From NCBI GenBank assembly GCA_041659005.1, contig JBAZZD010000003.1:2650-66649 (forward strand): a DNA stretch of 64,000 nt, in the 5' to 3' direction. The notes below the pieces were generated by a model. That model made no database searches, was not told the origin of the DNA, and was given only the letters and a program-made list of their open reading frames with translations. The translations under genes were made by a program, and so were the position numbers. This document shows, piece by piece, positions 10,324-56,982 of this stretch (position 1 is its first letter; the number at the start of each line of letters is the position of its first letter). This stretch comes from Minisyncoccota bacterium. GTDB taxonomy: Bacteria > Patescibacteriota > Minisyncoccia > UBA6257 > GWB1-50-10.

Positions 10324-10809
10324 ATGAAAGTTTCTCTTTTTGTCTCTGTTGTATTGGTCTTGTTTTTTATATTTATCCCATCACTTTCACTTGCTGCGGA
10401 CCCACCTTCAATATTTAGTGGAATTAATATCTGGCAAAACGCCTACTGCGGAAGCACTAGTAGTCCAATTACAAGCACGGAAGGACCAAAAGGTCCGTGC
10501 GGATTCTGCGATGCTATTATCATTGCGTCAAATGTGATGCGATATATGTTCGAACTTGTTTTTTATATTCTTTTTCCTGTGTTCTTTGCTTGGGGCGGGA
10601 TACAGTTTATGATATCCCAAGGAAACCCAAGTAAGATAAAACAGGCAAGACAAATACTTATCAGCACCGTAATAGGATTTGTAATTGCAGCGGCTGCGTG
10701 GCTTATTATTGGCCTTTTGTTTCACTTAATGACGAATCTCTCTAGTACAAGTTCACCAGACCCAAATAGTGTTAACTCAATTAATCCGTGGAATAAAATA
10801 GAATGTTAG
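10324..10809 (+). CDS. VirB2/TrbC-like pilin family protein (paralog 1)
   Basis: Signal peptide, Cys pair, two hydrophobic helices separated by short basic loop QGNPSKIKQARQ. Confidence 0.55.
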   Translation: MKVSLFVSVVLVLFFIFIPSLSLAADPPSIFSGINIWQNAYCGSTSSPITSTEGPKGPCGFCDAIIIASNVMRYMFELVFYILFPVFFAWGGIQFMISQGNPSKIKQARQILISTVIGFVIAAAAWLIIGLLFHLMTNLSSTSSPDPNSVNSINPWNKIEC

Positions 10810-10828
10810 TCTATATTAATTACATATT

Positions 10829-11149
10829 ATGAAAAAATATATTATCTTCTTTTCCCTTTTCTTTTTCCCATTATTTGTTTTTGCAACAACAACCGTTGAA
10901 TTTCCTAATCTACTCGGCAACGCAACTTTTGGGGGCATTCTTTCAAAGCTCCTAATAATTGCAATGTGGTTTGGGGCAGTGATCCTCACCGGTCTCGTTG
11001 TGTGGTCTGCGTATGTACTTATGTTCTCTAAAGGAGATCCAGCGGAGATAAAAAAGGCAAAAGCAATGTTATTGTACGGCGTTATTGGCTATGTTATACT
11101 TCTTTTTGCAGATGCGATTCGCTTGATTATATTGAATCTTCTCGCATAA
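10829..11149 (+). CDS. VirB2/TrbC-like pilin family protein (paralog 2)
   Basis: Signal peptide, two TM helices, loop KGDPAEIKKAKAM shared with paralog 3. Confidence 0.6.
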   Translation: MKKYIIFFSLFFFPLFVFATTTVEFPNLLGNATFGGILSKLLIIAMWFGAVILTGLVVWSAYVLMFSKGDPAEIKKAKAMLLYGVIGYVILLFADAIRLIILNLLA

Positions 11150-11195
11150 AAGGTCGGATACTAACACATATTTGATACAAATCTGTTATATATAT

Positions 11196-11555
11196 ATGAA
11201 TAAAATTTCAAAAGTGGCAGTTGTCGGATTTTCACTCCTTACTCCTGCACTTGTAATGGCACAGGGACCGTTATCATCAGTAGATACTGTTGGTGGATTA
11301 ATTGGAAAGGTAAATAATTTTGTTAAATTGGCCGTTTCAATCCTTTTTGTGCTTGCGTCCATCTTTATTATCATTGCCGCGTTTAAGTATTTGACCGGAA
11401 AAGGAGATCCAGCGGAGATAAAAAAGGCACAAGCCATGATTGTATGGGCAATCGTCGCAATGATTGTAGCACTTTTCGCATGGGCAATTCCTAAAATCGT
11501 CATAAACTTTATCGGAGCAACTGGCGTGAGTACAATAGAGAGTACTTCGTTCTAA
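11196..11555 (+). CDS. VirB2/TrbC-like pilin family protein (paralog 3; ATG at 11196, track ORF starts at TTG 11172)
   Basis: Signal peptide ending VMAQG, two TM helices, loop KGDPAEIKKAQAM. Confidence 0.6.
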   Translation: MNKISKVAVVGFSLLTPALVMAQGPLSSVDTVGGLIGKVNNFVKLAVSILFVLASIFIIIAAFKYLTGKGDPAEIKKAQAMIVWAIVAMIVALFAWAIPKIVINFIGATGVSTIESTSF

Positions 11556-11825: not shown

Positions 11826-13130
11826 ATGGAAAAAAAAACACATTTTATTCTTTATGGAATATTATTGCTAAGCATACTTCTTCATGCGTGGCGGCTTCCA
11901 ATACCAAGTCACGCCATGTTTGATGAGGTACATTACGCGACATACGCAGCTGATTATAGAACGAATACACCGTTTTTTGATGTACATCCTCCGCTTGGAA
12001 AATTTATCTATTCTATTCCACTCATTTTTTTGTCAAAGGAATCCTTAATAGAGTCACCATTTATTGAGCCTTCCCCAAATACACCAGTCGTATACAAGAT
12101 AACAAATCGTTCATTTTCAAGATTCCCATACATTCCACTCCGAATCACAAGCGCGTTTTTTGGAACCTTGTTGGTTCTTTCTGTATTTTTATTTATACGA
12201 GAGCTTACCAAAAGTAATACCATTGCACTACTTTCAGCATTTTTTGTAACACTAGAAAATTCAATTCTTGTTGAAACACGATTTATTTTTCTTGATGGTA
12301 TTTTTCTAACATTTTCGTTTTTAGCGCTGTGGCAATTTTTAAAACAAAAGGATTCTGGGGTCTACTCAGGAATTCTTTGGGGGTGCACACTTGCAACAAA
12401 GCTTGTTGGAATTATCTTTCTTCCATTTATTTTGTTTCAAAAAGTAGATTGGTGGAAAAAATGGAAATTTGTTACAGTAGGATTCTTTACTCTTGGAACT
12501 CTCTGGATCGGAATTCAATTATCTGCATTCCCAACAGATAAATGGTACGAATTTACAAAAATGGTCAATACTGATGTTGCAGAAACAATTCCGCACATTC
12601 CACAAAAATTATCTCTTGTAGATAAATCCGTGTTAAAAAGTTATCTTTTTTTGAATGAAATTTCTTGGTCCACAAATGGATACACCACAATTCAGGCGCA
12701 CAATCCATCAGAAAGCAAGTGGTTTGAGTGGCCATTTATGATCGGATCATTCTGTTATGGCGAACGCGCATTTCCTATCTGCCTAATTGGAAACCCAGCA
12801 TTGTGGGGATTTGGATTTTTAGCAGTTCTGTGGACAATCCTTTATATAGCAATTAAAAAACTGAGAAAACAAAAAGTAAGCACAATAGTAACATCTCTTT
12901 TTTTGGGATACGCATCCGTTCTCCTTCCTTTCGCAATAATTCCTCGTTATAAATTAATTTGGCAATATTTTCCCGCACTTATATTTTCGTTGTGTTTGGC
13001 TGCGTATTGGATTGTTACATACAACAATACATTAGGAAAAAGATATCGCATATTTTCTTATATACTACTCCTATCAATTGTGTGCCTTGGTTTCCTCTCT
13101 GTTTCTCCTACAACATTTGGAATTCGCTAG
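11826..13130 (+). CDS. GT39/PMT-family glycosyltransferase (dolichyl-phosphate-mannose protein mannosyltransferase / ArnT-like)
   Basis: DEVHY...DVHPPLGK motif near N-terminus, polytopic membrane protein; track ORF start at 11745 is read-through of the tRNA. Confidence 0.7.
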   Translation: MEKKTHFILYGILLLSILLHAWRLPIPSHAMFDEVHYATYAADYRTNTPFFDVHPPLGKFIYSIPLIFLSKESLIESPFIEPSPNTPVVYKITNRSFSRFPYIPLRITSAFFGTLLVLSVFLFIRELTKSNTIALLSAFFVTLENSILVETRFIFLDGIFLTFSFLALWQFLKQKDSGVYSGILWGCTLATKLVGIIFLPFILFQKVDWWKKWKFVTVGFFTLGTLWIGIQLSAFPTDKWYEFTKMVNTDVAETIPHIPQKLSLVDKSVLKSYLFLNEISWSTNGYTTIQAHNPSESKWFEWPFMIGSFCYGERAFPICLIGNPALWGFGFLAVLWTILYIAIKKLRKQKVSTIVTSLFLGYASVLLPFAIIPRYKLIWQYFPALIFSLCLAAYWIVTYNNTLGKRYRIFSYILLLSIVCLGFLSVSPTTFGIR

Positions 13131-14017
13131 GTCTTCTTCCTTTTTCTTCCATGGAATGCCTCATGAACCTCATGAAGCTCTTTATTGGTAAGATGGGTGT
13201 ACATTTGCGTCGTTGAAATGTTTGCATGCCCTAACATTTCTTGAACTGAACGGAGATCGGCTCCGTTTATTAATAGGTCGGTCGCGAATGAATGTCGAAG
13301 CTGATGGGGATGGACCCGTTTTGATATGCCCGCTTTCCGTGCATAAAAATCTACAAGACGTTGCACGGCACGAGGAATAATTCGTCCCGTAACACTTCCT
13401 GATCTTGAAAGTGATATAAATAATGCCTCCTCGGTATCGCCACGTTTATCTAGATACTCTTTTAAATTCTTTTTTGCAGAGTCTGAAATAAATACCACTC
13501 GCAACTTCTCTCCTTTTCCTCGCACTGAAAACTCACCACGACTAATATCAATATATCGACTCAACGAACAAAGTTCAGACACGCGAAGCCCAGTAGAAAA
13601 TAGCATCTCTAAGATTGCTCTGTCACGAAGAATGCGCAAAGATGCTCCTTCGGGAGCATTAAGTAATCGTTCTAGTTCTGCATAATCAAGCACTTCAATA
13701 TCACGCCGTGCGATTTTTGGAAGTTCTATTGTTTCTGGGGGCAATACTTTTATTCCACGTTTAATGCAATATTTCAAAAGATTTCTAATCGCAATAACAT
13801 AATAGCTTTGAGTTACTTTTTTTGTATTTTCACGAGAAAGTTGCACACGGAAACTCCGTACTGAAGTGTCGGTAATATCTGAGATTTTCTTGATCCCTTG
13901 ATCTCGCAAAAATCGAGAAAGATATCGTTCGTAATTTTCTCTTGTTTTAGGTGAACGATTTTTTTCAATTTCTAAATAATCAAGATATTCTTTTACAATT
14001 TTCTCTGCTTCATCCAT
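13127..14017 (-). CDS. tyrosine site-specific recombinase, XerC/XerD family
   Basis: N-terminal SAM-like core-binding domain, C-terminal R..HxxR...Y catalytic residues (RHSFATDLL, HANISTTQMYTHL). Confidence 0.78.
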   Translation of the reverse strand: MDEAEKIVKEYLDYLEIEKNRSPKTRENYERYLSRFLRDQGIKKISDITDTSVRSFRVQLSRENTKKVTQSYYVIAIRNLLKYCIKRGIKVLPPETIELPKIARRDIEVLDYAELERLLNAPEGASLRILRDRAILEMLFSTGLRVSELCSLSRYIDISRGEFSVRGKGEKLRVVFISDSAKKNLKEYLDKRGDTEEALFISLSRSGSVTGRIIPRAVQRLVDFYARKAGISKRVHPHQLRHSFATDLLINGADLRSVQEMLGHANISTTQMYTHLTNKELHEVHEAFHGRKRKKT

Positions 14018-14277
14018 CCCGTTAGAAAACTAGCCAATTATTATTTCGACATTTTTCGTAGATTAATTTTATAAACATATTCTGTGTTAGTTCAAAGACA
14101 TATTTGCTTCTAACGGGACAAGTTGTATATATTATATTCTAACTAAAAATATTGTGCGACAAAACAAGTTGAAAACCGATGTATTTTGTTACTTTTTCCT
14201 ATTCCTAATTTTCAAAAATTAAGCAATAAATGAGTTATATTCCCAATAAGTCGCCCTACCTACCACACAAAGTGAAT

Positions 14278-14331
14278 AAATCCCCACTTTTTAGAGACTA
14301 AACCTCTAAAGTCTCCAAAAAGTGGGGATTT
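14278..14331 (+). promoter_or_regulatory. 21-bp-stem hairpin in rpsO 5' leader (candidate S15 autoregulatory or processing structure)
   Basis: aaatccccactttttagagac / gtctccaaaaagtggggattt near-perfect inverted repeat 50 nt upstream of rpsO ATG. Confidence 0.5.
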
Positions 14332-14380
14332 ATGAATGAAAAATTGACTTATTGTGGCTTTCGTAGTAACATAGCATCAT

Positions 14381-22665: not shown

Positions 22666-23463
22666 ATGAGGCAAAAACTTGGTCAACATTTTCTGAAAAA
22701 CGAACAGACCCTTTCTTTTATTGCACGAAACTCAAATATTAAACAAAACGATTTCGTTATTGAAATTGGCTCTGGGCACGGGGAGCTAACAAAATATCTC
22801 ATTTTAGAAACCAAAAAAAACAACGCGCGTCTGTTGTGTATTGAAAAAGATCCTACATTTTTTACGCCAATTAAAATACTCATTGGGAAAAATAATGAGC
22901 TTTTGAAGGGAGACGTACGAGAAATATTACCCCTAATTAATAGAAAGTTAGGAGGACATCCATATGTAATTATAGGAAATATCCCATATTACCTTACTTC
23001 ATTTCTCTTTCGTATCATAAGTGAATTAGAGACAAAGCCGCACACTATAACACTCTTAATTCAAAAAGAAGTTGCTGAACGAATCAAAGAAAAGCCGCCA
23101 AAACAAAATCTCCTCTCTGCAATTATTGCTTCATTTGCTGACGCAAAAATTGTTAAGCGCGTTTCCCGTGGGCAGTTTTCACCACCACCAAAAGTAGACT
23201 CGGCAGTTGTTCAACTAACCACTCACAACCGCTATACACAAAAGGAAATAGACATTTATATAAAAACTGCAAAAATATTATTTTCACAACCAAGAAAAAC
23301 TATTTTTAATAACGCACGCTGCCACAAGGAGGAGATACAATTGTCAGAAAGCACGATACGCGATATATTTTTCGCTGCAAAAGTAAAAGAAAGTGATCGT
23401 GCGCAGGCACTAACCCCAAAAACCATGATGGTACTTGCAAAAATGTTGTATAATGAAATGTAA
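22666..23463 (+). CDS. rsmA: 16S rRNA (adenine1518/1519-N6)-dimethyltransferase RsmA/KsgA
   Basis: LGQHFL start motif, EIGSGHGELT SAM-binding motif. Confidence 0.85.
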   Translation: MRQKLGQHFLKNEQTLSFIARNSNIKQNDFVIEIGSGHGELTKYLILETKKNNARLLCIEKDPTFFTPIKILIGKNNELLKGDVREILPLINRKLGGHPYVIIGNIPYYLTSFLFRIISELETKPHTITLLIQKEVAERIKEKPPKQNLLSAIIASFADAKIVKRVSRGQFSPPPKVDSAVVQLTTHNRYTQKEIDIYIKTAKILFSQPRKTIFNNARCHKEEIQLSESTIRDIFFAAKVKESDRAQALTPKTMMVLAKMLYNEM

Positions 23464-24209
23464 TGAGGAAGAAAAAAGTCCTCGCATTTGTGGTGGTTGC
23501 TATAGGCGTCTCATGTTCGGCGTATCTTTTGTTTTCAAACTCGAACGCGGGAGCATCTTCTCTAACAATCGCCGGCTCTGAACGGGCCGACGCGCGTTTT
23601 ATCACCTCAAATGAGGCGCTTCCCTTATTAAATGATCCAACATTTAACGCAACAGATCAGGTTATTAGGGATTACGAACAAGCAATTTTTGAATACAACA
23701 GAGGGAAAAAAAGTGGGGACACCGCACGACTTCCCAATGATGCTGATATAGAGAATATGATTAGCAAATATACAACTCAAACGTTTGATTTTCAAAAATA
23801 CACCGAAAAAGACATAAAAATAAGTAAGAGCTCGTCACTTGGCGAATTAACAACATATTTAGAAAAGGTAAAAAATGAGAATGATGAAGCAAAAAGAACT
23901 GCCCCATCAAATATTGTTTCTGCGATTGGATTGTTTGTTTCCGAAAAAAACGCGGAAGAAGTTGGAAAACATATTTCCGCCCAATCGGAGTTTATCAATG
24001 CACTCCTTAGTATGCCCGTTGTTCCCGAATGGAAGGCCTTTCACTTACAATTATTAAATAACGCGGAGGAAAAACGTTTTCTCTTAAAAGTTATTTTTGA
24101 AAACCAAGAAGATCCAATAAAGGTGGTTTCTGCGGTTAAAAATATTGAAAGTGCGTTAATAAAAGAAGATACAATTTGGAAGGCCGCACTGGAAACCCTA
24201 AAAAAGTAA
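23463..24209 (+). CDS. hypothetical membrane-anchored/secreted protein (first gene of T4SS-like locus)
   Basis: N-terminal TM anchor, no recognisable domain. Confidence 0.4.
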   Translation: MRKKKVLAFVVVAIGVSCSAYLLFSNSNAGASSLTIAGSERADARFITSNEALPLLNDPTFNATDQVIRDYEQAIFEYNRGKKSGDTARLPNDADIENMISKYTTQTFDFQKYTEKDIKISKSSSLGELTTYLEKVKNENDEAKRTAPSNIVSAIGLFVSEKNAEEVGKHISAQSEFINALLSMPVVPEWKAFHLQLLNNAEEKRFLLKVIFENQEDPIKVVSAVKNIESALIKEDTIWKAALETLKK

Positions 24210-24210
24210 T

Positions 24211-26175
24211 ATGCAGAAAATCCTAACAAAAATAACTGCGACGATTCTTATATTTTCATTTTTTGCTATATATATACCAAAACAAGCAAGTGCCGCATCA
24301 CAATCTTCTATAACCGACATTGCACTTCAATGTGGGCTTGTTGATCTTGGAAAGGATGTGCTTGAGGGACTTGGAATTCCAACTTCTCCAAAAGAAGTTG
24401 TTGATCTTGGAAAAAATTTACTAGCGACAGAGGCAAAGGAAGAAATTGGAAAAGAAATTGGAAAAGAAATAAAAAAAATTATACCATTACCAATTGGTGG
24501 CAGTGTGCCAGTATACGATGCGGATGTGAAAATAACTTTAAAAGAGGTTGTAATGGTGGCTGATAGAAAAAATGCAGAAAAAGTGCAAGAAAAAATAAAA
24601 ACAGCAAGCGTTGAAAATTGTCTTCTTGCAATAAAAGATTTCGCATTAAAGGTGGCACTCGCCCGATTAAAAAAACAGCTTTTGGACAGGATTGCTGACC
24701 AAACACTTGAGTGGATTAATAACGATTTTCGTGGACAACCGCGTTTCATAACCAACTTTGGAGACGTGTTTGACGATTCATATCAAGCGGCCGTTGGTGA
24801 TGTCGCGCGAGACATTGGTCTCGGAAAATTATGCGACGAAAAACTCTCATTAAAACTTCAACTTAATCTTCGGGCGCCAACACAAAAAAAGTTTACACAA
24901 GATGCATCATGCACACTTGATAAAATAGTTGGAAATATCAACTCATTCAAAGACGATTTTAGAAACGGAGGGTGGATTGGCTATACTGAATCACTTTCCC
25001 CAAGCAATAATCGTTTTGGACTTGAACTTCTTGCGATGGATCAAATGTATTCATTGCAACAAAAGAACGAAAAGGTTGCAGCACAAGAAGCAAGTACCGG
25101 ATCTGGATTTAATGGAGAAAAAGTATGCGATAGATGGAGGCTTGATCTTGTTGATAAAACAACAAAAGTAGTTGTTCCGCAAAAAATATATCTTGGTTTT
25201 ATATCGGAATTTCCCGATCCTAGAAAACCTCTTCAAAATACAACTGGTGCCTCTTATGAAGATGGACTTACGCTTGCGGCAAAACTTTCAGTACAAGCTT
25301 CACTTCTTAATTCCTACGATGCTCATGGTTCCGGATGGATATGTGATCATACATACATAAACACCCCAGGAGATACTGCACGCACAGCACTACAGAACAC
25401 CTTTACTCAAGATCAATCCTATATTACAAGCGCAGAAAATCTTGAAGATTATATTAATGTTATTTTTGACGCAGCGGTTACCCGTCTTATCAATAACGGT
25501 GTTAAGGGAATTGTAAATGCTGGAAAAGGACTTTTTAAAGATAATCCTGACACACAGAGCAATTTTGGCGCCAACAGAGAGGGAACAGCATATGGAGATA
25601 CCAAAATACAAGATTCCTATTACAATAGTAGAGCTACAACCGACATACTCGATGAGGCAGCAAAAGAAAAACAGAAAGAAATTGAAGACTTGAATGACAA
25701 AATAAGGCAACAAGACAAAACAAATCTTCAAACACGATTTAATGCTGCAACATCCTCATTTAAAACCGCAAGTTCGTCAGTGGATGCTGCAAAAATATCA
25801 CTAGACAAACTGGATAATAAACTCGTTAGTCTTTCTAATTGCGAACAACTAAAATCATCACTAGCGGCAGTCTGTCTTTCAACAAGAAACGAACAACAGG
25901 TGGTAGCGGGACACAGGACGTCTCTTGGAAATACATATATACTACTCGCCTCAACCACACAATTGATTTCCCAGGTACAACAACCACTGTCTGCGATACC
26001 CGACGCAGATATTCAAGCGGCTACCGATAGAATTGTACAAATTGAAACCAATATATCTTCAATTTCAAATATCACAAATGAGATAACAACATATTCAGTC
26101 TCTAAGGATGCGGAAATTAGTTCGTTGCTTAATATGTGTTTGAATGCAACCACGTACGACTTCTGTCAACCATAA
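24211..26175 (+). CDS. large secreted hypothetical protein (candidate surface/adhesin or VirB5-like component)
   Basis: Signal peptide ...PKQASAAS, 654 aa, in-frame EIGK tandem repeat, no known motif. Confidence 0.4.
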   Translation: MQKILTKITATILIFSFFAIYIPKQASAASQSSITDIALQCGLVDLGKDVLEGLGIPTSPKEVVDLGKNLLATEAKEEIGKEIGKEIKKIIPLPIGGSVPVYDADVKITLKEVVMVADRKNAEKVQEKIKTASVENCLLAIKDFALKVALARLKKQLLDRIADQTLEWINNDFRGQPRFITNFGDVFDDSYQAAVGDVARDIGLGKLCDEKLSLKLQLNLRAPTQKKFTQDASCTLDKIVGNINSFKDDFRNGGWIGYTESLSPSNNRFGLELLAMDQMYSLQQKNEKVAAQEASTGSGFNGEKVCDRWRLDLVDKTTKVVVPQKIYLGFISEFPDPRKPLQNTTGASYEDGLTLAAKLSVQASLLNSYDAHGSGWICDHTYINTPGDTARTALQNTFTQDQSYITSAENLEDYINVIFDAAVTRLINNGVKGIVNAGKGLFKDNPDTQSNFGANREGTAYGDTKIQDSYYNSRATTDILDEAAKEKQKEIEDLNDKIRQQDKTNLQTRFNAATSSFKTASSSVDAAKISLDKLDNKLVSLSNCEQLKSSLAAVCLSTRNEQQVVAGHRTSLGNTYILLASTTQLISQVQQPLSAIPDADIQAATDRIVQIETNISSISNITNEITTYSVSKDAEISSLLNMCLNATTYDFCQP

Positions 26176-26176
26176 A

Positions 26177-28843
26177 ATGCAGATACAACCCCTTCTACAA
26201 CAACATAAAAAACAAATTATTCTTGGCCTTATTTTGGGGTTTGTATTTGCCGCAGGTATATTTACTCCGAGTGTTTCAAATGCGATGCTCGGAATTTCAA
26301 TGTCGAGTATTATCACTTTTGTTTTTAAAGCGGCGGCATATATATTCAACTTTATTTTTGGAATATTTTTTGTAATTGCGGCATGGCTTGTTAGTTTTAC
26401 TCTTCAACTAAACGAGACGGTCGCAGATAAAAACTTCAACACAATTGCGGATGTTGGATGGAGAATCTGTCGTGATGTTGCGAACTTAGGATTCGTGCTC
26501 CTCACGGTCATAATGGCATTTACCACCATAATTCGCGTGCAATCATATGGGGCAAAAAAACTTCTTCTCAATCTCGTTATCGCGGCAGTGGTAGTAAACT
26601 TTAGTTTTGTTATCGCGGGAACACTTATTGATTTCTCTAATGTGCTTACTTCATTCTTTATTAATAGAATAAGCCCAAATGGACTTGGAACAGAGTTTAC
26701 CGAGACGCTTGCTGGCGCTTTCGGTCCACAAAAATTTTTACTAGAGGAAACAGATGACCCCCTTCCTCCAGACCCCAGCCAAGAAGAAAGTGGACTCGTC
26801 ACTTTTGGCACCGCAATGCTCTCATCAATTGCTGGTCTGTTCTTTTCTGTTTTCTTTACGATCCTTGCAACTATCGTGCTTCTTTTGCTCGCCGTAATGC
26901 TACTTGTTCGTTATGTTGCCCTTACCTTTATTCTTGTTCTTGCCCCCCTTGCGTGGTTATTTTGGGTCTTCCCAGGACTCAAATCATATAACAGCCAATG
27001 GTGGTCGGCATTTTGGAAATATACATTCTTCGCTCCCGCGGTATCATTTTTCGTATATTTATCAATTCTTGCCGCCGAAGGACTCAAATCTGCAGGATAT
27101 CAAGAAAAAATTATGATGGTTGGCGGAGGACTTCCAAACATGCTTGCAAAAATAGCACAGCAAGGAACGCAAATGATTGTAGTTGCCGGACTTATGATTG
27201 GTGGAATTATAGTTGCCCAAAAAATGGGAATTGAGGGAGCGAATATCGCCAACAAGGCAAAAGACGGAATGATGAAAAAAGCAAAGGATTACGGGAAAGA
27301 TAGGGCGACAAATTTTGGAACACGGTTATCAAAAACATCAGTGGGGGGTACTGTTTCCTCTGGACTTAAGAAAGTGGGTGGATACTTCAAGGGAACAGGA
27401 GAGGACATTCAAAAGAAACGGGAAGCAGCAAAGGCAAAACACCTTGGATATAAAGACCAGATCGCTACAATTAATAACTCATCAAAATCTCCAGAACAAA
27501 AAAGAGAGGAGATTAATAATCTCAAGAAGGTACAGGATCAGAAAGCAGAAAACTACAATAACGCATTAAAAGAATTTAACGAAAAGAAAAAAGAAATAAA
27601 TAGCAACAAAGACATTTCAAAAGAACAGAAAAAGAAAGACATTGAGGCCCTAAAGAAACAATATGATTTGGAGAATATTCGTCCAGATCGCCTTGGATTT
27701 GGAAGCAGAATTGGTCTTTGGGCAAAAGATAAGACGCTTGGCTCAACTACTCGGTCGGTTGGGGGTGGAATAGAGGCAACTGGAAAAGGAATTGATAAAC
27801 AGGCAATAAAAGAGATAAAGAAGACAAAGAATTGGGGAGAATCTCTTGTTCGTGGCGCACTTCTTGGTGCCGGACTCATGAAAGAGAAGGAAAAGAAAGA
27901 CGAAAAGAAGACGGCCGCAGAACTTGAAAAAGATCTTCAAAAGAAACTTAAAACAAAACAAGATAAACTTAAATTGCGTAACACCGATGGTTCGGTTCGC
28001 TTTAAGGAGGACGACCTAAAGGAAGACAACAAGCAGATTGAGTTTGGACGACAAGCATTCGCTGGCGCGTATCGTAGCCGATTGAGAAACATGGAAGAGG
28101 TGGACATAGAAAAAGAGCACTCATCAACACTTAAACAGCGCAAGGGTGCAAAGACAAAAGACGAGGAAATTCTTGCAAACAATAAACTTGATGCGATTCG
28201 CCAGACTACAAAAATGAAAACTGGCAGACTTGAAAATATAGAACAGATCGAAACCGCACTCGCAAAGGAAAAAAATAGAAAAGATGAAGCATTCGTAAAT
28301 GGAGTTGATACAACCCCGTACGAAAAGGTAATAAGTGAATATGAAGGAAAAATACGATCATTGAGTGGAAGGGTCTCAAATCGCCTTGAGGTATTCAAAA
28401 AGATGGAAGAAAGATTAAACGCGCTAGACAAGAAACGCAACGAAAAATTAAAGGAGATTGCATCAAAACTTACGTCAGGATCGGCAACAGAAGCAAGGGA
28501 AGATGTTGGCTTCAAACAAATTGAGACCATAACAAAATCGTTCAGATCAAACATTGAAAACGTTGAATCTGTCCTTTCTCGAAAGGCGCAAAAACTTGGG
28601 GAATTAGACAAAAAATTAAATGATTTGAATGAAATAAAATTAAAAACATCTGGACTAAGCGAATTAGAACTCAGCAGTTGGGGGGTCACTCAAGAAGAAC
28701 AAACAGAACTTATAAAAGAAATTGATAAGGGTATTCTTGAAACACAAAGCTTAATAGAAAAGAGAAAAGAGAAAAGAGAAAAGAAAGGAGAAAAGAAAGG
28801 AGAAAAGAAGGAAGAGGAGAAAAAGTCCGGTCTTGTTGGCTGA
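26177..28843 (+). CDS. VirB6/TrbL-like polytopic membrane protein with long Lys/Glu-rich coiled-coil C-terminal extension
   Basis: About 7-8 TM helices in first 380 aa then charged low-complexity tail; position just upstream of VirB3/VirB4-like genes. Confidence 0.4.
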   Translation: MQIQPLLQQHKKQIILGLILGFVFAAGIFTPSVSNAMLGISMSSIITFVFKAAAYIFNFIFGIFFVIAAWLVSFTLQLNETVADKNFNTIADVGWRICRDVANLGFVLLTVIMAFTTIIRVQSYGAKKLLLNLVIAAVVVNFSFVIAGTLIDFSNVLTSFFINRISPNGLGTEFTETLAGAFGPQKFLLEETDDPLPPDPSQEESGLVTFGTAMLSSIAGLFFSVFFTILATIVLLLLAVMLLVRYVALTFILVLAPLAWLFWVFPGLKSYNSQWWSAFWKYTFFAPAVSFFVYLSILAAEGLKSAGYQEKIMMVGGGLPNMLAKIAQQGTQMIVVAGLMIGGIIVAQKMGIEGANIANKAKDGMMKKAKDYGKDRATNFGTRLSKTSVGGTVSSGLKKVGGYFKGTGEDIQKKREAAKAKHLGYKDQIATINNSSKSPEQKREEINNLKKVQDQKAENYNNALKEFNEKKKEINSNKDISKEQKKKDIEALKKQYDLENIRPDRLGFGSRIGLWAKDKTLGSTTRSVGGGIEATGKGIDKQAIKEIKKTKNWGESLVRGALLGAGLMKEKEKKDEKKTAAELEKDLQKKLKTKQDKLKLRNTDGSVRFKEDDLKEDNKQIEFGRQAFAGAYRSRLRNMEEVDIEKEHSSTLKQRKGAKTKDEEILANNKLDAIRQTTKMKTGRLENIEQIETALAKEKNRKDEAFVNGVDTTPYEKVISEYEGKIRSLSGRVSNRLEVFKKMEERLNALDKKRNEKLKEIASKLTSGSATEAREDVGFKQIETITKSFRSNIENVESVLSRKAQKLGELDKKLNDLNEIKLKTSGLSELELSSWGVTQEEQTELIKEIDKGILETQSLIEKRKEKREKKGEKKGEKKEEEKKSGLVG

Positions 28844-28866
28844 TTTAGAAATTACTACAAATAACA

Positions 28867-29955
28867 ATGGACTACTCAAAATTTACCGAAGAACTATTTG
28901 ATGAGCGATACGAGACAATCCCAGCGTCCCTGCGGGCCGCGTTTGAATCAGATAAAACAAAACGAACCCTTGAAAACATTGAACGCGAACATTATTTAAA
29001 TCCTGATAAATCAGTTATTCTCGAACAGTTGGTCGGCTTAACGCTCATGGGATTTATTCCGCTCAGAAATCTTTCGCGCGAAGTTGGAGAGCAATTATTT
29101 CTCAATTTTGAACACGCACAAGTGCTCACGAATGAAATTTATAATCGTGTTCTTGCCCCATATGAGGACGAAATAACAGAGACTTACAAATCAGTGGAGG
29201 AAATGATTGCAGAAAAAGAACAAATTGATGAAGCTATTAATTCGCGAAAAAAGGATTCAATTGAACAGGGGAAGAACGAGAACAACGAAGAAACAATACG
29301 ACCAAGTTTTTTCAGTAAAGAAATAAATGAGTCCCCAATAAAAATTGAGACGTCTGAGGACGCGCCACTCATCATCCATGAGGAGCCATCATTTTTCACA
29401 AAACAGGATCGGAGCGATAGAGAAAAACAAATCGAGACACCATTTAATAGATTTATTCCTTCGTCGTCCGAATCCATAGAAAAAAAGGCGCCACGAGCAA
29501 AGATTGAAGGAGGGAATAACCCATTCTCTTTTCTTAATCCAGCACAAAAAACAACAGTTCATTATAGTGAAACTCGAACTGGATTAAAACAAGAAATTGG
29601 ACCCGAAAACGAGGTGGTAAGCATTGGAGCAATTGACCGAATGACCCAAGGACCACAAGAAGAACAGAAAATTCTTTCAGAAACAAAACCCTTGGGAAAT
29701 ATGATAACTATTCAGACTCCCGAAGTAATAAATATCGCGCCAACAATTGCCACAAAAGCTGATACCTCACTTATAGAATCAGCTGTAATGCCAGAACAAA
29801 AACCAGAGAAAAAATCTTCTTGGATATCAAATATATTCAATCAGAAAAATAACATAAATAAATCCGAGACGCTATTACCCGAAATTCAAATACACGAACA
29901 AAAACCAGAAATAACACAATCGGTAATCCAAGGGAACACTATAAATCTAAAATAA
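28867..29955 (+). CDS. hypothetical acidic protein
   Basis: ORF in operon context only. Confidence 0.35.
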   Translation: MDYSKFTEELFDERYETIPASLRAAFESDKTKRTLENIEREHYLNPDKSVILEQLVGLTLMGFIPLRNLSREVGEQLFLNFEHAQVLTNEIYNRVLAPYEDEITETYKSVEEMIAEKEQIDEAINSRKKDSIEQGKNENNEETIRPSFFSKEINESPIKIETSEDAPLIIHEEPSFFTKQDRSDREKQIETPFNRFIPSSSESIEKKAPRAKIEGGNNPFSFLNPAQKTTVHYSETRTGLKQEIGPENEVVSIGAIDRMTQGPQEEQKILSETKPLGNMITIQTPEVINIAPTIATKADTSLIESAVMPEQKPEKKSSWISNIFNQKNNINKSETLLPEIQIHEQKPEITQSVIQGNTINLK

Positions 29956-30012
29956 AGAGGTATTCGTTCCCCAATGTGCTTGTTTTGTTATTATCTATTA
30001 CAATAAAGAAGT

Positions 30013-30519
30013 ATGGCATCATTCCAAGTGCCCCAATTTATTGAGGAAAAGCCAAAAATTATATCGTTTTTTACACTACAACAATTCCTGCTTCTTGGGG
30101 GCGCAGCAATTTTTTCTATTGTTCTTTATTATATTTTTTCAATGTTTTTGTGGGTATTGCTTTCTTCGTTGATTATTGGAAGTGCCGCTGCACTCGCGTT
30201 TGTAAAAATAAGCGGCCAAGACCTTCCAAAAGTTGTTCGCTCGGCATTTCGTTATTATTGGAATCCGCGCAGATATGTGTGGGAACGGGCAATGGAAGAA
30301 ACATCTATTGATTCTGGGTCATTTGAAAAAATATCATCAATGCGTCGCGCAATGAGTATTCAAGAAAAGCTTAAAAAAATGGCCGAATCAATAACCACCG
30401 GTAAATTATTTAAACCAGAGGATGCGCTTCCTGAAGGGACAAAACTACCAAAAGGGAAATATGAAATCGTTACATACCTTACCGGAGAAAAAAGAGCCGC
30501 GAAACGTGTTGATTTCTAA
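30013..30519 (+). CDS. VirB3/PrgI-like small membrane protein
   Basis: Two adjacent TM helices near N-terminus, immediately precedes VirB4 pieces. Confidence 0.4.
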   Translation: MASFQVPQFIEEKPKIISFFTLQQFLLLGGAAIFSIVLYYIFSMFLWVLLSSLIIGSAAALAFVKISGQDLPKVVRSAFRYYWNPRRYVWERAMEETSIDSGSFEKISSMRRAMSIQEKLKKMAESITTGKLFKPEDALPEGTKLPKGKYEIVTYLTGEKRAAKRVDF

Positions 30520-30521
30520 TT

Positions 30522-31178
30522 GTGTACAATAAGATTATGCAAGAAGCAAGCTCCCCAACACAAAAGTTTGTTGAAGTAAAAGAAATAAAAGATGGAATAG
30601 TATATTTAAAGAATGGCGGCATTCGGAGAATTTTAATTGTTGGGGGTATAAACTTTGACTTAAAATCCGACGCCGAACAAAATCTTATCTTGAGCAGTTT
30701 TCAAAATTTTTTAAATACCGTGGATTATCCCGTTCAACTTTTTATACACTCGCGAAAGGTAAACGTTGATGCATATTTGGAAAAAATGCGCGAACGGAGG
30801 GGAAAGGAAGAAAATGAATTATTAAAAATCCAGATTGACGAATACATAACCTTTATTAAAACGCTTGTTGAACAAAATTCAATTATTTCAAAAACATTTT
30901 TTGTTATTGTTCCCTATGAGGGAGTAATAAATTCTTCCTCCTTTGGAATTATTTCCTCACTATTTGGATCACAAAAGTCAAAAAATGCTGAGGAGAAAGC
31001 GACACTTCAATCAAAATTAGAACAATTGGAACATCGCGTTATTGAAGTAAGGGACGGACTAGAACAAATTGGACTTCGCGTTTCAGAACTAGACGATGGA
31101 GAACTTACTGAGCTTTTTTATAACCTATATAACCCACAACTTATTGAGAAAAAGGGTCTTCAAATAACAAAAAACTAA
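30522..31178 (+). CDS. VirB4-family N-terminal domain (separate ORF)
   Basis: Start resembles VirB4/TraE N-terminal region (IKDGIVYLKNGGIRRIL.V.GINFDLKSDAEQ...FLN); size (218 aa) plus downstream 583-aa ATPase equals full-length VirB4. Confidence 0.5.
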   Translation: MYNKIMQEASSPTQKFVEVKEIKDGIVYLKNGGIRRILIVGGINFDLKSDAEQNLILSSFQNFLNTVDYPVQLFIHSRKVNVDAYLEKMRERRGKEENELLKIQIDEYITFIKTLVEQNSIISKTFFVIVPYEGVINSSSFGIISSLFGSQKSKNAEEKATLQSKLEQLEHRVIEVRDGLEQIGLRVSELDDGELTELFYNLYNPQLIEKKGLQITKN

Positions 31179-31183
31179 ATGAT

Positions 31184-31195
31184 CCCGTTAGAGAC
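31184..31195 (+). repeat. 12-bp inverted-repeat arm (cccgttagagac) flanking GIY-YIG gene
   Basis: Reverse complement gtctctaacggg at 31444-31455. Confidence 0.7.
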
Positions 31196-31198
31196 TAT

Positions 31199-31459
31199 AT
31201 GCACTACGTATATATCTTACAGAGTGAGAAGAGTAATAGGTTCTATACTGGGTATACAGCAAATTTACGGAAACGTTTAAAAGAACACAATGAAAATAAA
31301 TCAAGATATACAAATAAAAGAGGTCCATTTATACTTGTCTATTATGAGGCATGTTGCGATGAATATGATGCAAGGTCGCGCGAAATCTATCTTAAATCAG
31401 GAATGGGTAAGCGGTTTATCAAAAACCGACTTAAACGTTTCCTGTCTCTAACGGGATGA
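31199..31459 (+). CDS. GIY-YIG nuclease domain protein (YhbQ/UPF0213-like)
   Basis: YVYILQSE...FYTGYTANLRKRLKEH matches GIY-YIG core; stop overlaps downstream ATG (ATGA). Confidence 0.8.
   Translation: MHYVYILQSEKSNRFYTGYTANLRKRLKEHNENKSRYTNKRGPFILVYYEACCDEYDARSREIYLKSGMGKRFIKNRLKRFLSLTG
31444..31455 (-). repeat. 12-bp inverted-repeat arm (partner of 31184-31195)
   Basis: gtctctaacggg directly abutting ATG of VirB4 ATPase ORF. Confidence 0.7.
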
Positions 31460-41615: not shown

Positions 41616-42995
41616 ATGAACCACAACGAACTTTGGAAAACAGTACTTGGAGAAATTGAGGTTCAAATATCACGTCCAAATTTTCTTACGTGGTTAAAAA
41701 ATAGTGAGCTTGTTCAAAAAGATGAAAAAGAAGGGATTGCGCTCGTTGGACTTCCAAATAACTTTGCTAAAGAGTGGGTAAAAAATCGTTATCATAAAAT
41801 TATTCTTGGTTCTCTTCGTAACGTTGATAGCAGCATCAAACAGGTTACCTATACAGTCCTTAACCATGCGGCGCAACAACCAACAATAAGGAGGGGGGAG
41901 GTTGTTCGCGGACTTGAGCTTGTTGACGAAAAAGCAAATCCGATTTCCGAACTATCAATTAATCAAAAAACAAATTTAAATCCAAAATATTCTTTTGATA
42001 CATATGTTGTTGGATCATCAAACGAGCTCGCATTTGCTGCTGTCCAAGCAATTATTAATGATGTTGGAAAAAAATATAATCCTTTATTTATTTATGGCGG
42101 TGTTGGTTTAGGAAAAACTCATTTGTTGCAAGCAGCAGGAAATGAGGTAACAAAAAAATATGGAGGAAAAATCCGCGTTTTATATTCAACGTCTGAAAAA
42201 TTTATAAACGACGTCGTGTGGTCTGTGCGCAATAAACGCATGGAGGATATGAAAAAAAAATATCGCGACATTGATATGCTTATTATTGACGACATTCAAT
42301 TTATTGGTGGAAAACCAGCCACTGAATTGGAGTTTTTTTACACATTTAACGCTTTGTATGAAAATAATAAGCAAATTATTATTTCTTCTGATCGTTCTCC
42401 GGCAGCAATTCCAACACTCGAAGAACGTCTTCGTTCACGATTTGAAGGTGGGATGATAGCCGACATTTCCTACCCCGACTATGAAATGCGCTTGGCAATT
42501 TTAAAAACAAAGGCTCAAGACCAGAATAAACTGATTGATGATTGGGTTCTTGAATATATTGCATCAAAAGTGCAACGCAACATTCGTGAGGTCGAGGGAG
42601 TTCTAAATAAGGTTATTTTTTATGAGGACTACAAAAAGCAAAAAATAGATCAGAAGAAATTGGAGGATATTATTAATGAAACGGTTCAAATTAACCAGAA
42701 AAATGTAAGCGCTCAGGATATAATAAAGACAGTGGCAGAATTTTATGAAATATCACAGGCAGACCTTATAAATCGAGGAAGAAAACAGGAAGTCGTTGAA
42801 CCTCGACAAATTGCTATGTTTCTTCTTCGTGATATGTTAAAACTTTCATACCCACATATTGGAGAAAAGCTAGGGAAAAGAGATCACACAACAGTAATTC
42901 ATGCGTGTGAAAAAATTGGAAAAGAGCTTACGCAAAACCCAAACCTAAATCAAAAATTAATGCTTATAAAAGAAAAAATGTTTAAAACATGTTAA
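41616..42995 (+). CDS. dnaA: chromosomal replication initiator protein DnaA
   Basis: AAA+ Walker A GGVGLGKTHLL, DnaA box-binding C-terminal domain. Confidence 0.93.
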   Translation: MNHNELWKTVLGEIEVQISRPNFLTWLKNSELVQKDEKEGIALVGLPNNFAKEWVKNRYHKIILGSLRNVDSSIKQVTYTVLNHAAQQPTIRRGEVVRGLELVDEKANPISELSINQKTNLNPKYSFDTYVVGSSNELAFAAVQAIINDVGKKYNPLFIYGGVGLGKTHLLQAAGNEVTKKYGGKIRVLYSTSEKFINDVVWSVRNKRMEDMKKKYRDIDMLIIDDIQFIGGKPATELEFFYTFNALYENNKQIIISSDRSPAAIPTLEERLRSRFEGGMIADISYPDYEMRLAILKTKAQDQNKLIDDWVLEYIASKVQRNIREVEGVLNKVIFYEDYKKQKIDQKKLEDIINETVQINQKNVSAQDIIKTVAEFYEISQADLINRGRKQEVVEPRQIAMFLLRDMLKLSYPHIGEKLGKRDHTTVIHACEKIGKELTQNPNLNQKLMLIKEKMFKTC

Positions 42996-43189
42996 TAACT
43001 ATTGAATACCTGTGGAAAAATACCAGTAATAATTAGTTCGCCGTCTAATAACTTACAATCAAAACAAAAATAATCCACAATACACAGTTCTTATTTCTTT
43101 TTTCTCCACAGATGAAAACGTAAATAACGTTTATATAACCTAATAAAAACTCACTTATCCACTTATCCACACCACTTACTACTATTACT
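42996..43189. promoter_or_regulatory. putative oriC (dnaA-dnaN intergenic) with DnaA boxes
   Basis: Tandem TTATCCAC-TTATCCACA at 43162-43178 plus near-consensus boxes TAATCCACA and TGTGGAAAA; AT-rich. Confidence 0.6.
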
Positions 43190-44299
43190 ATGAAATGTAT
43201 TATATTAAAGAATAACTTAATAGAAGGGATGAATGCAGTTGAGCGATCAACGGGGTTTTCTTCTAACCTTCCAATTTTGAAGGATGTTTTAATAAAAACG
43301 GATCAAGGAAAAATTGTTTTTATTGCAACTAATCTTGAATTGGCAGTTACTGAAATAATTTCAGGGAAGGTTATTGAAGATGGTGTTGTTGCTGTTCCAT
43401 TTTCTATTTTTTCTTCAGTAGCAAAAAATTTAACATCAGACAGAATTACACTTGAAGAACAACAGGGAAATCTCTTGGTTGCTACCGATAATTATGATGC
43501 GGTTGTACAAGGACATGATGTAAAGGAATTTCCTATAATTCCAACACTTTCAACAAAAGATTTTTTTGTAAAACTTGATGTTAAATTATTTAGCGAAATT
43601 TTAGAAAAAGCGATAATTGCAACTCAATATTCTGAAATAAGGCCAGAAATAAGCGGTGTATTTTTAAAATATTCTCGCGATCACCTCATAGTGGCTGCAA
43701 CTGATAGTTTTCGCCTCGCAGAACGTGTCATAAGCTCAAATCAAGCATCCTCCTCGTTTGATGAGTCGTCAGTTATAATTCCGTTTAAAACAGCTGAAGA
43801 ACTAATACGAATACTTAAAAATGAAAAAGGAGAAATAATAATAAAGAGTGATGAGGGGCAGGTAGTATTTATTACCGAAAAAACAGAAATGGTTTCTCGA
43901 GTAGTTGATGGTATATTTCCTGAATATAAAGCCATCATTCCAAAAACAACAGAAAACGAAGTGACAATTGAACGAATTGAATTTATTAACGCATTAAAAC
44001 TTGCAAGTAGTTTTTCTGGAAAAACAAATGATATCACCGTTACTATTGGTGAAAGTAAAAAATATCTTGAATTATCTTCGGCTGATGCAACACTTGGAAA
44101 GAATTGTTATAAAATTCCAATAAAATTTAAAGGAAACCCACTTTCAATAATTTTTAATTGGAAATTTCTCCTCGATGGATTAAAAATATATTCTTCAAAA
44201 GAAATTACTATTGGTATTAATTCTAGAGAAAGACCGGCAGTTATTAAATCACAAAACGAACAAGATATTGTGTATGTGGTTATGCCAATAAGGAATTAA
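43190..44299 (+). CDS. dnaN: DNA polymerase III beta sliding clamp
   Basis: Three-domain clamp architecture, start MKCIILKNNLIEG. Confidence 0.9.
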   Translation: MKCIILKNNLIEGMNAVERSTGFSSNLPILKDVLIKTDQGKIVFIATNLELAVTEIISGKVIEDGVVAVPFSIFSSVAKNLTSDRITLEEQQGNLLVATDNYDAVVQGHDVKEFPIIPTLSTKDFFVKLDVKLFSEILEKAIIATQYSEIRPEISGVFLKYSRDHLIVAATDSFRLAERVISSNQASSSFDESSVIIPFKTAEELIRILKNEKGEIIIKSDEGQVVFITEKTEMVSRVVDGIFPEYKAIIPKTTENEVTIERIEFINALKLASSFSGKTNDITVTIGESKKYLELSSADATLGKNCYKIPIKFKGNPLSIIFNWKFLLDGLKIYSSKEITIGINSRERPAVIKSQNEQDIVYVVMPIRN

Positions 44300-55205: not shown

Positions 55206-55598
55206 ATGAAACGTTTATTTTTGTCGTTTGTTTGTTTGTCATTTTTGTTTTCTGGATGTGTAACATTAAAAACCAACATTCCTTTTTATCGTACCGATGG
55301 AGTGATTGTAACCTGTCCGGTAAGCGTTGGGAGGATCGTAATTAAAAAATATTCTAGGTTCGTTGAGGGGCAAGAATACACCGTGGTTCCTGGGAAGGAA
55401 ACTCGTGTGTATGCAGACGGAGTATTTTCGGACCAACCGATGACTCTTGTTGGTTTCGTCTACAATAAAAAAGGTCAAGTTATAGGTCGCGTATCTCGCG
55501 ATTTCCGGTTTGACGGAAACTCCTATGAGGTAAAGATTCACATGTGGAATATTACCAACTGGGAGTCTACTCAATCTGAAAGGAATTGGTTGTGGTAA
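55206..55598 (+). CDS. hypothetical lipoprotein
   Basis: Lipobox LFSGC after signal peptide. Confidence 0.45.
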   Translation: MKRLFLSFVCLSFLFSGCVTLKTNIPFYRTDGVIVTCPVSVGRIVIKKYSRFVEGQEYTVVPGKETRVYADGVFSDQPMTLVGFVYNKKGQVIGRVSRDFRFDGNSYEVKIHMWNITNWESTQSERNWLW

Positions 55599-55650
55599 AT
55601 AATTTGCTCGTGCGTATGCACGGGCGATTTTTTTTGGTATCTTAAAAGCG

Positions 55651-56457
55651 ATGATCATTTTCCTATACGGAGCAGATATATATAGGAGGGAAGTGAAGGT
55701 AAAAGAACTTCTTACAATCAACCGCGAAAAAAAGAAAAATGCGGATATTAAAGTTTTTGATTTGTGCGAAGAAAAAGAGAAATGGAGAGAAGCAAAGGAA
55801 TTCCTTTCTCAACCATCAATGTTTTCTGATACAAAAACAGTGGTAATTTATGGAAGCGGAGAGGTAGATATAAAAGAATGGAGAGAGTTATTAAAAAAAG
55901 AGATCCACACAAAAGACCATGTAATAATTATTTCTGATGAAAAAGCACCAAAAAAGAATTTTCAGTTTCTTTTAGATCCAAATATTAAAACAAGCGAATA
56001 TACAGAGCTTGATGAAAAAAAACTTGAGGTATTTTTAAAGCGTGAAGCAGAGCGACTCGATGTTTCATTAGATAACGAGTCGTGGAAATTATTCGTTTTG
56101 CACATTGAATCATTTCCACTGCGAAGTGCCGCCGGCGTTCGTGAACTCGAGAAGTGTGCATTATTTTCCAAAAATAAAATATTAAATGAGGATGGATTAC
56201 GATCAATAATACAAACTTCAGAAACAGAAGATGTGTATGGAGTGGCGCGGACACTCACATCAGAAAGAAGAAGAGAGAAGAGAATGGCTATTCTTGAGCG
56301 TGCGCTTATCAACAAAGTAGATCCTGCACACTTATTTAATACGTTGGTATATGTGGTAAATGGTGTGGGGATTGAGCGTCTTGCACAACTTGATGTAAAA
56401 ATAAAAAGCGGGAACGCAGAATACGAAGAAGCACTCCTCGAATTTGTTCTCCATTAG
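55651..56457 (+). CDS. holA: DNA polymerase III delta subunit-like (HolA)
   Basis: N-terminal IFLYGADIYRREVKVKEL...VFDL...P.MFSDTKTVVIYGSG pattern similar to HolA; shorter than typical. Confidence 0.5.
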   Translation: MIIFLYGADIYRREVKVKELLTINREKKKNADIKVFDLCEEKEKWREAKEFLSQPSMFSDTKTVVIYGSGEVDIKEWRELLKKEIHTKDHVIIISDEKAPKKNFQFLLDPNIKTSEYTELDEKKLEVFLKREAERLDVSLDNESWKLFVLHIESFPLRSAAGVRELEKCALFSKNKILNEDGLRSIIQTSETEDVYGVARTLTSERRREKRMAILERALINKVDPAHLFNTLVYVVNGVGIERLAQLDVKIKSGNAEYEEALLEFVLH

Positions 56458-56617
56458 ACCTACTGCATAATTATGTTTTAGCTACAATTTTCACATTTCT
56501 GCTGCGGCTTTGCAAAAATCTTTCAATATATTCTGCCTGAATATACTTCAATATTTTTGCAAAGCCGCAGCAGAAATGTGAAAATTGTAGCTAAAACATA
56601 ATTATGCAGTAGGTCTA
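56455..56617. repeat. about 160-bp palindromic element: perfect 63-65-bp inverted-repeat arms around a 33-bp partly palindromic spacer, TA on both flanks (MITE-like)
   Basis: Left arm 56457-56519 is exact reverse complement of 56553-56615; overlaps holA-like stop codon. Confidence 0.9.
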
Positions 56618-56618
56618 T

Positions 56619-56652
56619 TAAAAACTCTCCAATAAACGGAGAGTTTTTAATT
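56619..56652. terminator. bidirectional intrinsic terminator (rpsT and holA side)
   Basis: aaaactctcc-aataaac-ggagagtttt with A-run and T-run flanks, abuts rpsT stop. Confidence 0.7.
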
Positions 56653-56902
56653 ATTTTAGTTTTTTTGCAAGACGAGACTTCATTCGATTTGCTTTGCCTT
56701 TTTTGATAAGTTTCACCTTTGCCATCTTATCAATTGTTTTATAGGTTTCTGCGAGTTTTGTTTTCGCTTCATCTTTGCTAGTTGAAAGAGAACGACGAAA
56801 ACTTTTTATTACGATTTTAAGTTTTGTTTTTCGTGCGTCGTTTCGTGCGTTTCTCGTTTTATTTTGCTTTAATGCTTTTTTTGCTGAACTTGTTTTTGGC
56901 AT
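56651..56902 (-). CDS. rpsT: 30S ribosomal protein S20
   Basis: MPKTSSAKKALKQNKTRNARN start, basic 83 aa. Confidence 0.88.
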   Translation of the reverse strand: MPKTSSAKKALKQNKTRNARNDARKTKLKIVIKSFRRSLSTSKDEAKTKLAETYKTIDKMAKVKLIKKGKANRMKSRLAKKLK

Positions 56903-56982
56903 ATTTCTATAGACACAGTAAAGCGTATTTTTTATGAAATGTCAAAGTATGTGAGTAGTTTGTTGTGGGGTATACTTACCGT

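Follow-up and report, generated by a model that had tools for sequence, protein, structure and literature searches.

A probable miniature transposable element at the holA stop codon of an uncultured Paceibacteria bacterium

The Correia elements of Neisseria (CREE/NEMIS) are intergenic, non-coding sequences of ~100-160 bp with terminal inverted repeats, often co-transcribed with adjacent genes into hairpins that RNase III can cleave, and present or absent polymorphically among strains. Their inverted repeats measure 26 bp, they are associated with TA duplications and they reach hundreds of copies per genome. ERIC/IRU and YPAL in enterobacteria and RUP in Streptococcus pneumoniae are imperfect palindromes of 107-170 bp in transcribed intergenic regions, thought to be miniature inverted-repeat transposable elements (MITEs) mobilised in trans; all are multicopy, and RUP and ERIC are tied to TA targets and IS630-like partners. 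The bacteria of the Candidate Phyla Radiation (CPR; Patescibacteria) have small, streamlined genomes in which transposable elements have scarcely been recorded, and a full-text literature search returned no description of MITEs in them. Here we describe a palindrome of about 160 bp lying between a holA-like gene (DNA polymerase III delta) and rpsT (ribosomal protein S20) in a metagenome-assembled genome (MAG) of an uncultured Candidatus Paceibacterota bacterium (Paceibacteria, CPR), within a 64-kb stretch of contig JBAZZD010000003.1 that we refer to as the window. We consider it probable that the palindrome represents one isolated copy of a non-autonomous, MITE-like DNA transposon, and that it belongs to a small family of ~160-bp elements with long terminal inverted repeats in Paceibacteria-class CPR bacteria. 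This reading rests on the empty sites found in relatives, on a short duplication at the junction, on a homologue at an unrelated locus (contig L002) and on the lack of an open reading frame (ORF) in the element. It resembles ERIC/IRU, YPAL and RUP in its size, palindromic form and intergenic position, and differs from them in being single in 64 kb, with perfect arms, no partner found and a CPR host. Compared with Correia elements, it has 65-bp perfect arms, a putative ATTA or ATT duplication (ATACA in the homologue), one copy seen and no sequence similarity. On this reading the element is of a well-known type, whereas its family, a small one, is in effect new and has no earlier description. 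The features of the locus are as follows.

55651..56457, plus strand: holA-like gene (DNA polymerase III delta), TIGR01128 E = 3.5e-21, 75.8 bits (cut-off 80)
56453..56456, unstranded: left target copy ATTA, containing the TA of the new TAG stop
56455..56519, unstranded: left perfect arm, 65 bp, exact reverse complement of the right arm, with 75% ungapped identity to the L002 left arm
56457..56616, unstranded: inserted element proper, 160 bp under the model of a 4-bp ATTA duplication, from filled versus empty sites
56495..56519, plus strand: inner-arm core, 25 nt, ATTTCTGCTGCGGCTTTGCAAAAAT, mirrored at 56553-56577 and identical in the L002 left arm
56520..56552, unstranded: central spacer, 33 nt, in which 4 pairs are mismatched and an inner stem of 7 bp (56527-56533/56539-56545) encloses a 5-nt loop
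56553..56617, unstranded: right perfect arm, 65 bp, from the mirror check
56617..56620, unstranded: right target copy ATTA, which includes the initial TA of the former TAA stop, at the base of the terminator stem
56617..56651, unstranded: bidirectional terminator-like hairpin of holA and rpsT, 14-bp stem flanked by an A-run and a T-run, kept in all relatives
56651..56902, minus strand: rpsT (ribosomal protein S20), convergent with holA, Pfam S20p E = 3e-17

An exact look-up of the window HolA protein retrieved no record. Orthologous loci were reached through homologues of HolA and S20, two homologues of the window HolA carrying the JGI name DNA polymerase III delta, and the window was compared with relatives L024, L003, L004-6, L007-9, L035-37 and L038-39. 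In every one of these the holA stop abuts the terminator, which alone occupies the 27-31 bp between holA and rpsT, versus 193 bp in the window. The closest relative, L024, whose holA is 92.6% identical at the nucleotide level across 530 bp, provides the closest empty site, ...GTT CTT AAT TAA AAACTCTCC, whereas the filled site of the window reads ...GTT CTC CAT TA[G ACC...GGTCT] ATT AAA AACTCTCC. At the junction, empty sites thus run ...AATTAAAAACTCTCC and the window ...CATTA[element]ATTAAAAACTCTCC. The net gain in the window is 164 bp and no target bases were lost. The flanks overlap in ATTA: the window has it twice, at 56453-56456 and at 56617-56620, and each empty site a single time. Three models fit equally: 160 bp plus ATTA, a symmetric 161 bp (56456-56616) plus ATT, and 163 bp (56455-56617) plus T; the alignment of the junctions points to a target duplication of 3-4 bp (ATTA or ATT). 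As judged from these aligned loci, the comparison shows that the element is a real insertion and not a conserved terminator. On the divergence of the same sequences, it also shows that the insertion took place after the split from L024 (~7% divergence) and before that from L001 (0.7-0.8%), a second strain carrying the element. The length of the protein did not change: the target TA and the first G of the element make up a new stop codon, TAG instead of the TAA of relatives, and the old TAA was moved 164 nt downstream.

The first-pass annotation, made from the sequence of the window alone, had proposed an inserted, mobile-like palindrome, and the empty sites together with the homologue at another locus in another organism uphold this. 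It had also named what would speak against it, a terminator structure ubiquitous at this position in relatives, and the element is absent from all those compared. A conserved terminator or regulatory structure would agree with the position of the element beside a terminator. In addition to the absence from relatives, the long stem has no U-tract after it: it is followed by TATTAAAAAC, and a terminator scan flags only the stem at 56617-56651, so the element was rejected as an intrinsic terminator. We therefore regard this explanation, together with that of an assembly artefact, as extremely improbable. De Bruijn assemblers can create palindromic artefacts, but the element sits in mid-contig with both flanks collinear with the relatives. 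Moreover, L001 is the same locus from another JGI sample, with 99.3% identity over 1,024 bp; its 7 differences from the window all fall in rpsT or in the region upstream of rpsT, and its element is identical base for base, with the loop in the same orientation. Since an identical copy occurs in an independent assembly with 7 flanking differences, the element is not an assembly artefact.

Two contigs similar to the window have structural peculiarities of their own. L024 as a whole, and L034 from position 326 on, appear to be chimeric or rearranged; the sample behind both contigs is ERZ5996431, with a coverage of ~1.2-1.3x. The holA of L024 is fused to a 5'-3' exonuclease N-terminal domain, and the rpsT similarity of L034 ends abruptly at position 326. 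The junction regions of both were used only where they could be aligned with the window. L034, an rpsT contig 96% identical to the window, was set aside as evidence on the site, for it breaks off or turns chimeric before the terminator and is uninformative on the element.

The TA dinucleotides at both ends of the palindrome had been likened in the first-pass annotation to the target duplication of Tc1/IS630-type MITEs. They are indeed there, but merely as the outermost two base pairs of the palindrome, which also explains them. That the element is an IS630/Tc1-mariner-type MITE of 159 bp (56457-56615) flanked by TA on each side appears very unlikely to us. Such an origin would account for the TA ends, and L003 offers a route to it: this relative has one extra codon before the stop (CAT AAT TAA); one substitution of A by T would turn this into CAT TAT TAA, and duplicating TA there yields precisely the sequence of the window. 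The extra codon, however, is absent from the five other lineages, that is, L024 and four others (AAT TAA; AAC TAA in L004-6). An element of 159 bp with a TA duplication predicts a net insertion of 161 bp, not the 164 bp observed with ATTA, and the homologue in L002 is flanked by ATACA, with no TA adjoining its ends. The proposed TA duplication is thus not supported, and would fit only had the ancestor possessed the extra codon of L003.

A base-by-base mirror check showed that the perfect arms are 65 bp long, 56455-56519 being the exact reverse complement of 56553-56617; pairing stops at 56454/56618 (T/T). The arms had been given as 63 bp with one further pair outward, which is too short, but their perfection stood up to re-examination. 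The 33-nt centre (56520-56552), which has a 7-bp inner stem, is quasi-palindromic as originally described, and the position just upstream of a bidirectional terminator is likewise correct, that hairpin having a 14-bp stem at 56617-56651. The palindrome, described as beginning at the last base of the holA stop, does overlap the stop codon, but covers all three of its bases (56455-56457). A repeat search scored the whole as an inverted repeat with 79-nt arms, 95% complementarity and a 5-nt centre; mismatched pairs are 4 of the 14 central ones and none of the 65 outer ones (Fisher p = 7e-4). The G+C content is 33%, versus 37.5% for the window. Predicted folding bears out the hyper-stable hairpin suggested earlier, with -131.5 kcal/mol (z = -25.7) for the RNA of the element and adjoining terminator and -80.7 kcal/mol (z = -24.1) for the DNA of the element. 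No match to a 39-nt probe from the arm is expected in shuffled sequences, which excludes a chance origin. There is no second inverted repeat of comparable size in the window, and no ORF of at least 40 aa within the 160-163-bp element.

Two internal signals were considered and rejected. Each arm carries an inward promoter-like match, at 56490-56519 (plus strand) and 56582-56553 (minus strand), of the form TTCACA-18-TGCAAAAAT, i.e., TTCACA, 18 nt and (TG)CAAAAAT, with 9 of 12 positions matching; the ATTTCTGCTGCGGCTTTGCAAAAAT core overlaps this weak match. Such matches are fewer than shuffled sequences lead one to expect, and L002 preserves neither the -35 box nor the spacing. An internal direct repeat, ATTTCTGCTGC with 20-nt spacing, is exact solely in the left arm of L002; its second copy in the window matches at 7 of 11 positions, which is not significant. 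Readings as an attC site, a telomere-resolution site or a retron were set aside on anatomy, there being no integrase-cassette context, protelomerase or reverse transcriptase nearby.

Scanning 241 million metagenome records for an exact 23-mer of the inner arm yielded two contigs, L001 and L002. Whereas L001 is the window locus, L002 is an unrelated one: a 160-bp inverted-repeat element lies at 598-757, 31 bp downstream of the rplL terminator, and the RplL protein is closest to those of Taylor-, Colwell- and Yanofskybacteria, which places the contig in the Paceibacteria class. The locus was recovered again in another assembly, L033, whose contig stops inside the element. The L002 element has an 18-bp perfect terminal inverted repeat, GGGTCTGTTGCCGAATAG, an arm-to-arm complementarity of 78% and direct ATACA flanks at 593-597 and 758-762. 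In an ungapped alignment, the arm of the window element shares 75% identity with the left arm of the L002 element and 60% with the right one. The two elements have the same total length and the same ends in register, and the outer 29 nt, which lie outside the search probe, match L002 in the same register at 15 of 29 positions (shuffle p = 0.0013). From this comparison of sequences, the two are homologous over their whole length, beyond the 25-nt core ATTTCTGCTGCGGCTTTGCAAAAAT.

The homologue bears on a further explanation, a one-off event involving no transposase, in which DNA captured at a double-strand break was folded back by template switching to give an inverted duplication in situ. A single copy is what such an event would leave, perfect arms are expected from a strand copied onto itself, and both window arms are of the left-arm type with respect to L002. 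We nevertheless find it highly improbable, given that a different organism has, at a different locus, an element equal in length and register and bordered by direct 5-bp flanks of its own, and given the clean short duplication at the window junction, where no target bases were lost. In the MITE-like reading, the left-arm type of both window arms suggests instead that the element arose by inverted duplication of a single transposon end. Long, near-perfect hairpins thought to derive from one transposon end folded back are also known among the Stowaway and Tourist MITEs of plants and the microRNA (miRNA) hairpins derived from MITEs. Those are eukaryotic, and the miRNA matches obtained from Rfam (see below) are structural look-alikes with no homology.

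Among other described families, the Tn3-derived MITEs (TIMEs/MICs) offer a lead only: the end of L002, which begins GGGTCTG, resembles the GGGGTCTG of Tn3-type ends. The consensus of Tn3-family TIMEs has 38-bp ends starting with GGGG and ending with TAAG, and a 5-bp duplication. L002 shares the A/T-rich direct duplication of 5 bp; the window copy, unlike TIMEs, ends in GACC, has a duplication of at most 4 bp and no TAAG at 35-38, and no Tn3-type transposase was found. REPINs and BIMEs are, like the window element, intergenic, hairpin-forming inverted doublets, with halves that evolve in step. They are built, though, from short REP units (20-40 nt), number tens to hundreds per genome, show no target duplication and depend on a RAYT gene. 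The single copy, the presence of a duplication and the lack of a Y1-transposase (RAYT-type) domain in the window speak against a REP or REPIN. Protein domains were sought with Pfam in 47 long ORFs out of the 54 that the window contains (42 scanned, five via precomputed assignments on L004 orthologues); the only recombinase found was an XerC/D-type integrase at 13130-14017.

Several observations weigh against a MITE-like element. Multiple copies are the hallmark of MITEs, but we saw the element once in 64 kb, and ~130 kb of DNA from relatives contained no further copy; the exact 23-mer returned only the window locus and one other from the metagenome records, and neither it nor a relaxed pattern gave a genuine match in 185,579 GTDB species-representative genomes. 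No transposase was found among the ORFs covered, nor was any autonomous partner. The empty site of L002 was not recovered, its closest RplL relative, L031 (85%), being too diverged downstream. The lengths of the duplications differ, with 3-4 bp in the window and 5 bp in L002. Finally, perfect 65-bp arms beside a diverged centre (the p = 7e-4 above) are not predicted by the simple decay of an old insertion. On the other side, the element displays several traits of a MITE, being small (within the ~50-600 bp of MITEs) and non-coding, with terminal inverted repeats, a short direct duplication and precise empty sites in relatives, and its intergenic position next to a terminator is typical of tolerated MITE insertions.

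Wider searches added no further copies. No second match to the ends of the element was found in the window or in the loci of the compared relatives, and none to the exact 23-mer or a relaxed single-arm pattern in the viral contigs of IMG/VR. PLSDB plasmids and GenBank phages gave no match with blastn in distant mode. At gathering thresholds, Rfam 15 yields only three tRNAs in the window and nothing for the element; at relaxed thresholds, the L001 and L002 copies retrieve generic plant and animal miRNA-precursor hairpins far below gathering (e.g., 75 versus 140 bits), which we rejected. The relaxed pattern ATTTCTG-N11-GCAAAAAT-N15-45-ATTTTTGC had 14 matches in genomes, in unrelated taxa and without palindromic context (best arm complementarity 40-49%), and was discarded as chance, as was a G+C-rich phage gene hit in four IMG/VR contigs by the terminal-repeat probe of L002. 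Separately, the outer arm end of the element, GACCTACTGCATAATTATGTTTTA, has a 24-nt exact match in a 175-aa phage structural gene in IMG/VR (L029 316-339, L030 3151-3174); this match has no inverted partner and no further similarity around it, and is probably due to chance, yet it is longer than expected.

The target of the insertion was the last codon and stop codon of holA together with the A/T-rich foot of the holA/rpsT terminator (...AAT TAA AAACTCTCC). If the element is MITE-like, a DDE-type transposase acting in trans would have made staggered cuts 3-5 bp apart in this A/T-rich target, and gap repair would then have duplicated it. The copy would have survived because the target TA and the G of the element recreate a stop codon and keep the length of the protein; it is probably immobile now, since no transposase was found in the window. 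The holA mRNA would gain a 164-nt extension of its 3' untranslated region (3'UTR), which should fold, upstream of the former terminator, into a perfect duplex of 65 bp. This duplex may be a substrate of RNase III, with an effect that is probably near-neutral, whereas transcripts of rpsT would stop at the terminator, short of the element. Perfect arms are most simply explained by a young copy and a source with identical ends; the source copy must then already have had identical arms. On this account the locus offers a cleanly dated insertion with filled sites, empty sites and a distant homologue, indicating that MITE-type elements do move in these genomes, and a case of an insertion that an essential replication gene tolerated, its stop codon having been rebuilt. 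Palindromes this large and perfect also break short-read assemblies, as with L033 ending inside the L002 element, and are worth flagging in MAG curation.

The main competing view is that of a functional hairpin, perhaps once mobile, kept perfect by selection or by gene conversion between the arms. Possible roles include an RNA duplex in the 3'UTR that protects holA mRNA or times its decay (an RNase III site), a DNA cruciform and a recombination site. The extreme predicted stability in both RNA and DNA agrees with this, as does the concentration of mismatches in the centre, with none in the 65 outer pairs. Moreover, the 25-nt inner-arm core is 100% conserved between elements otherwise 50-75% identical, although this core was the search probe and its conservation is partly an effect of ascertainment. 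Seven related lineages, however, manage without the element at this locus, and the homologue in L002, with its 78% arm complementarity, indicates that perfection is not a property of the family. The identity of the copies in the window and L001 is expected by chance (p = 0.26). On balance we regard a functional hairpin as unlikely. The first-pass annotation had seen in the perfect repeat a sign of either recent insertion or strong selection; the data are compatible with a fairly recent insertion, and strong selection need not be invoked for the perfect arms.

Another family of hairpins, unrelated to the element but present in the same genomes, has stems that are 100% paired, a hint of palindrome maintenance at the DNA level that would also favour a functional hairpin. 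Its members measure 58-62 nt overall and share a constant 20-nt centre, AGACT-N10-AGTCT (loop TTWGRGRTTT), extended by 19-21 further base pairs that vary between copies; the perfectly complementary arms total 24-26 bp. The family is not in Rfam. Its copies are as follows.

14276-14333, minus strand, window: between the xerC-like integrase gene and rpsO, with one G-U pair
3481-3540, L003: copy in a relative
1400-1457 and 11139-11200, L004: copies in a relative, with a further arm at 11300-11325
2026-2083, L007: copy in a relative
1-59, L034: copy in a relative

In 6 distinct copies every one of the 147 cells is paired (100%); both sides have changed in 17 of the 26 pairs, and G-U occurs just once. 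Pairing in slid controls is 30-47%. That G-U is almost missing suggests that the pairing is maintained in the DNA itself, which may in turn be relevant to the perfection of the 160-bp element. That palindromes in Paceibacteria are actively kept Watson-Crick complementary as DNA, with the 160-bp element and the AGACT-N10-AGTCT family as two examples, seems to us quite unlikely; possible mechanisms would be hairpin-based (single-strand) mobilisation, template switching within the palindrome and gene conversion. If it were true, the elements would be functional DNA hairpins, serving as recombination or protein-binding sites, and not inert transposon relics. The finding is an ordinary one unless the perfect arms prove to be actively maintained.

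The same family is responsible for a difference in length on the far side of rpsT, beyond which lie ruvA and then a Mur ligase gene. The rpsT-ruvA spacer is 62 bp in the window (56903-56964) versus 190-370 bp in relatives (L003 3429-3617, L004 11087-11453, L007 1973-2168), where it consists of one to several units of AGACT-N10-AGTCT hairpin plus linker. Copies are present there in relatives including L034, and none in the window. By eye, the units of L004 resemble a loose tandem of ~80 nt, which was not called by TRF.

Upstream of holA, L004 contains another element, at 9812-9996, which measures ~185 bp and has inverted ends of 35 nt with 83% complementarity. It is situated between holA and the terminator of a 130-aa ORF, and is without counterpart in L007 and in the window (55598-55651). 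We interpret it as another MITE-like insertion, of a different sequence family, and such insertions do occur in the clade. The window also includes dnaA (41616-42992) and dnaN, in an origin region spanning 41616-44296, so that the holA element likely lies ~14 kb from the origin. Not far from this origin region, the window also has what looks like a cluster of type IV secretion or conjugation-like genes: three small tandem genes with T4SS-pilin domains (10324-11552) and, further on at 23463-36844, large ORFs without Pfam matches around PrgI-like and TraG/VirB4-like P-loop genes.

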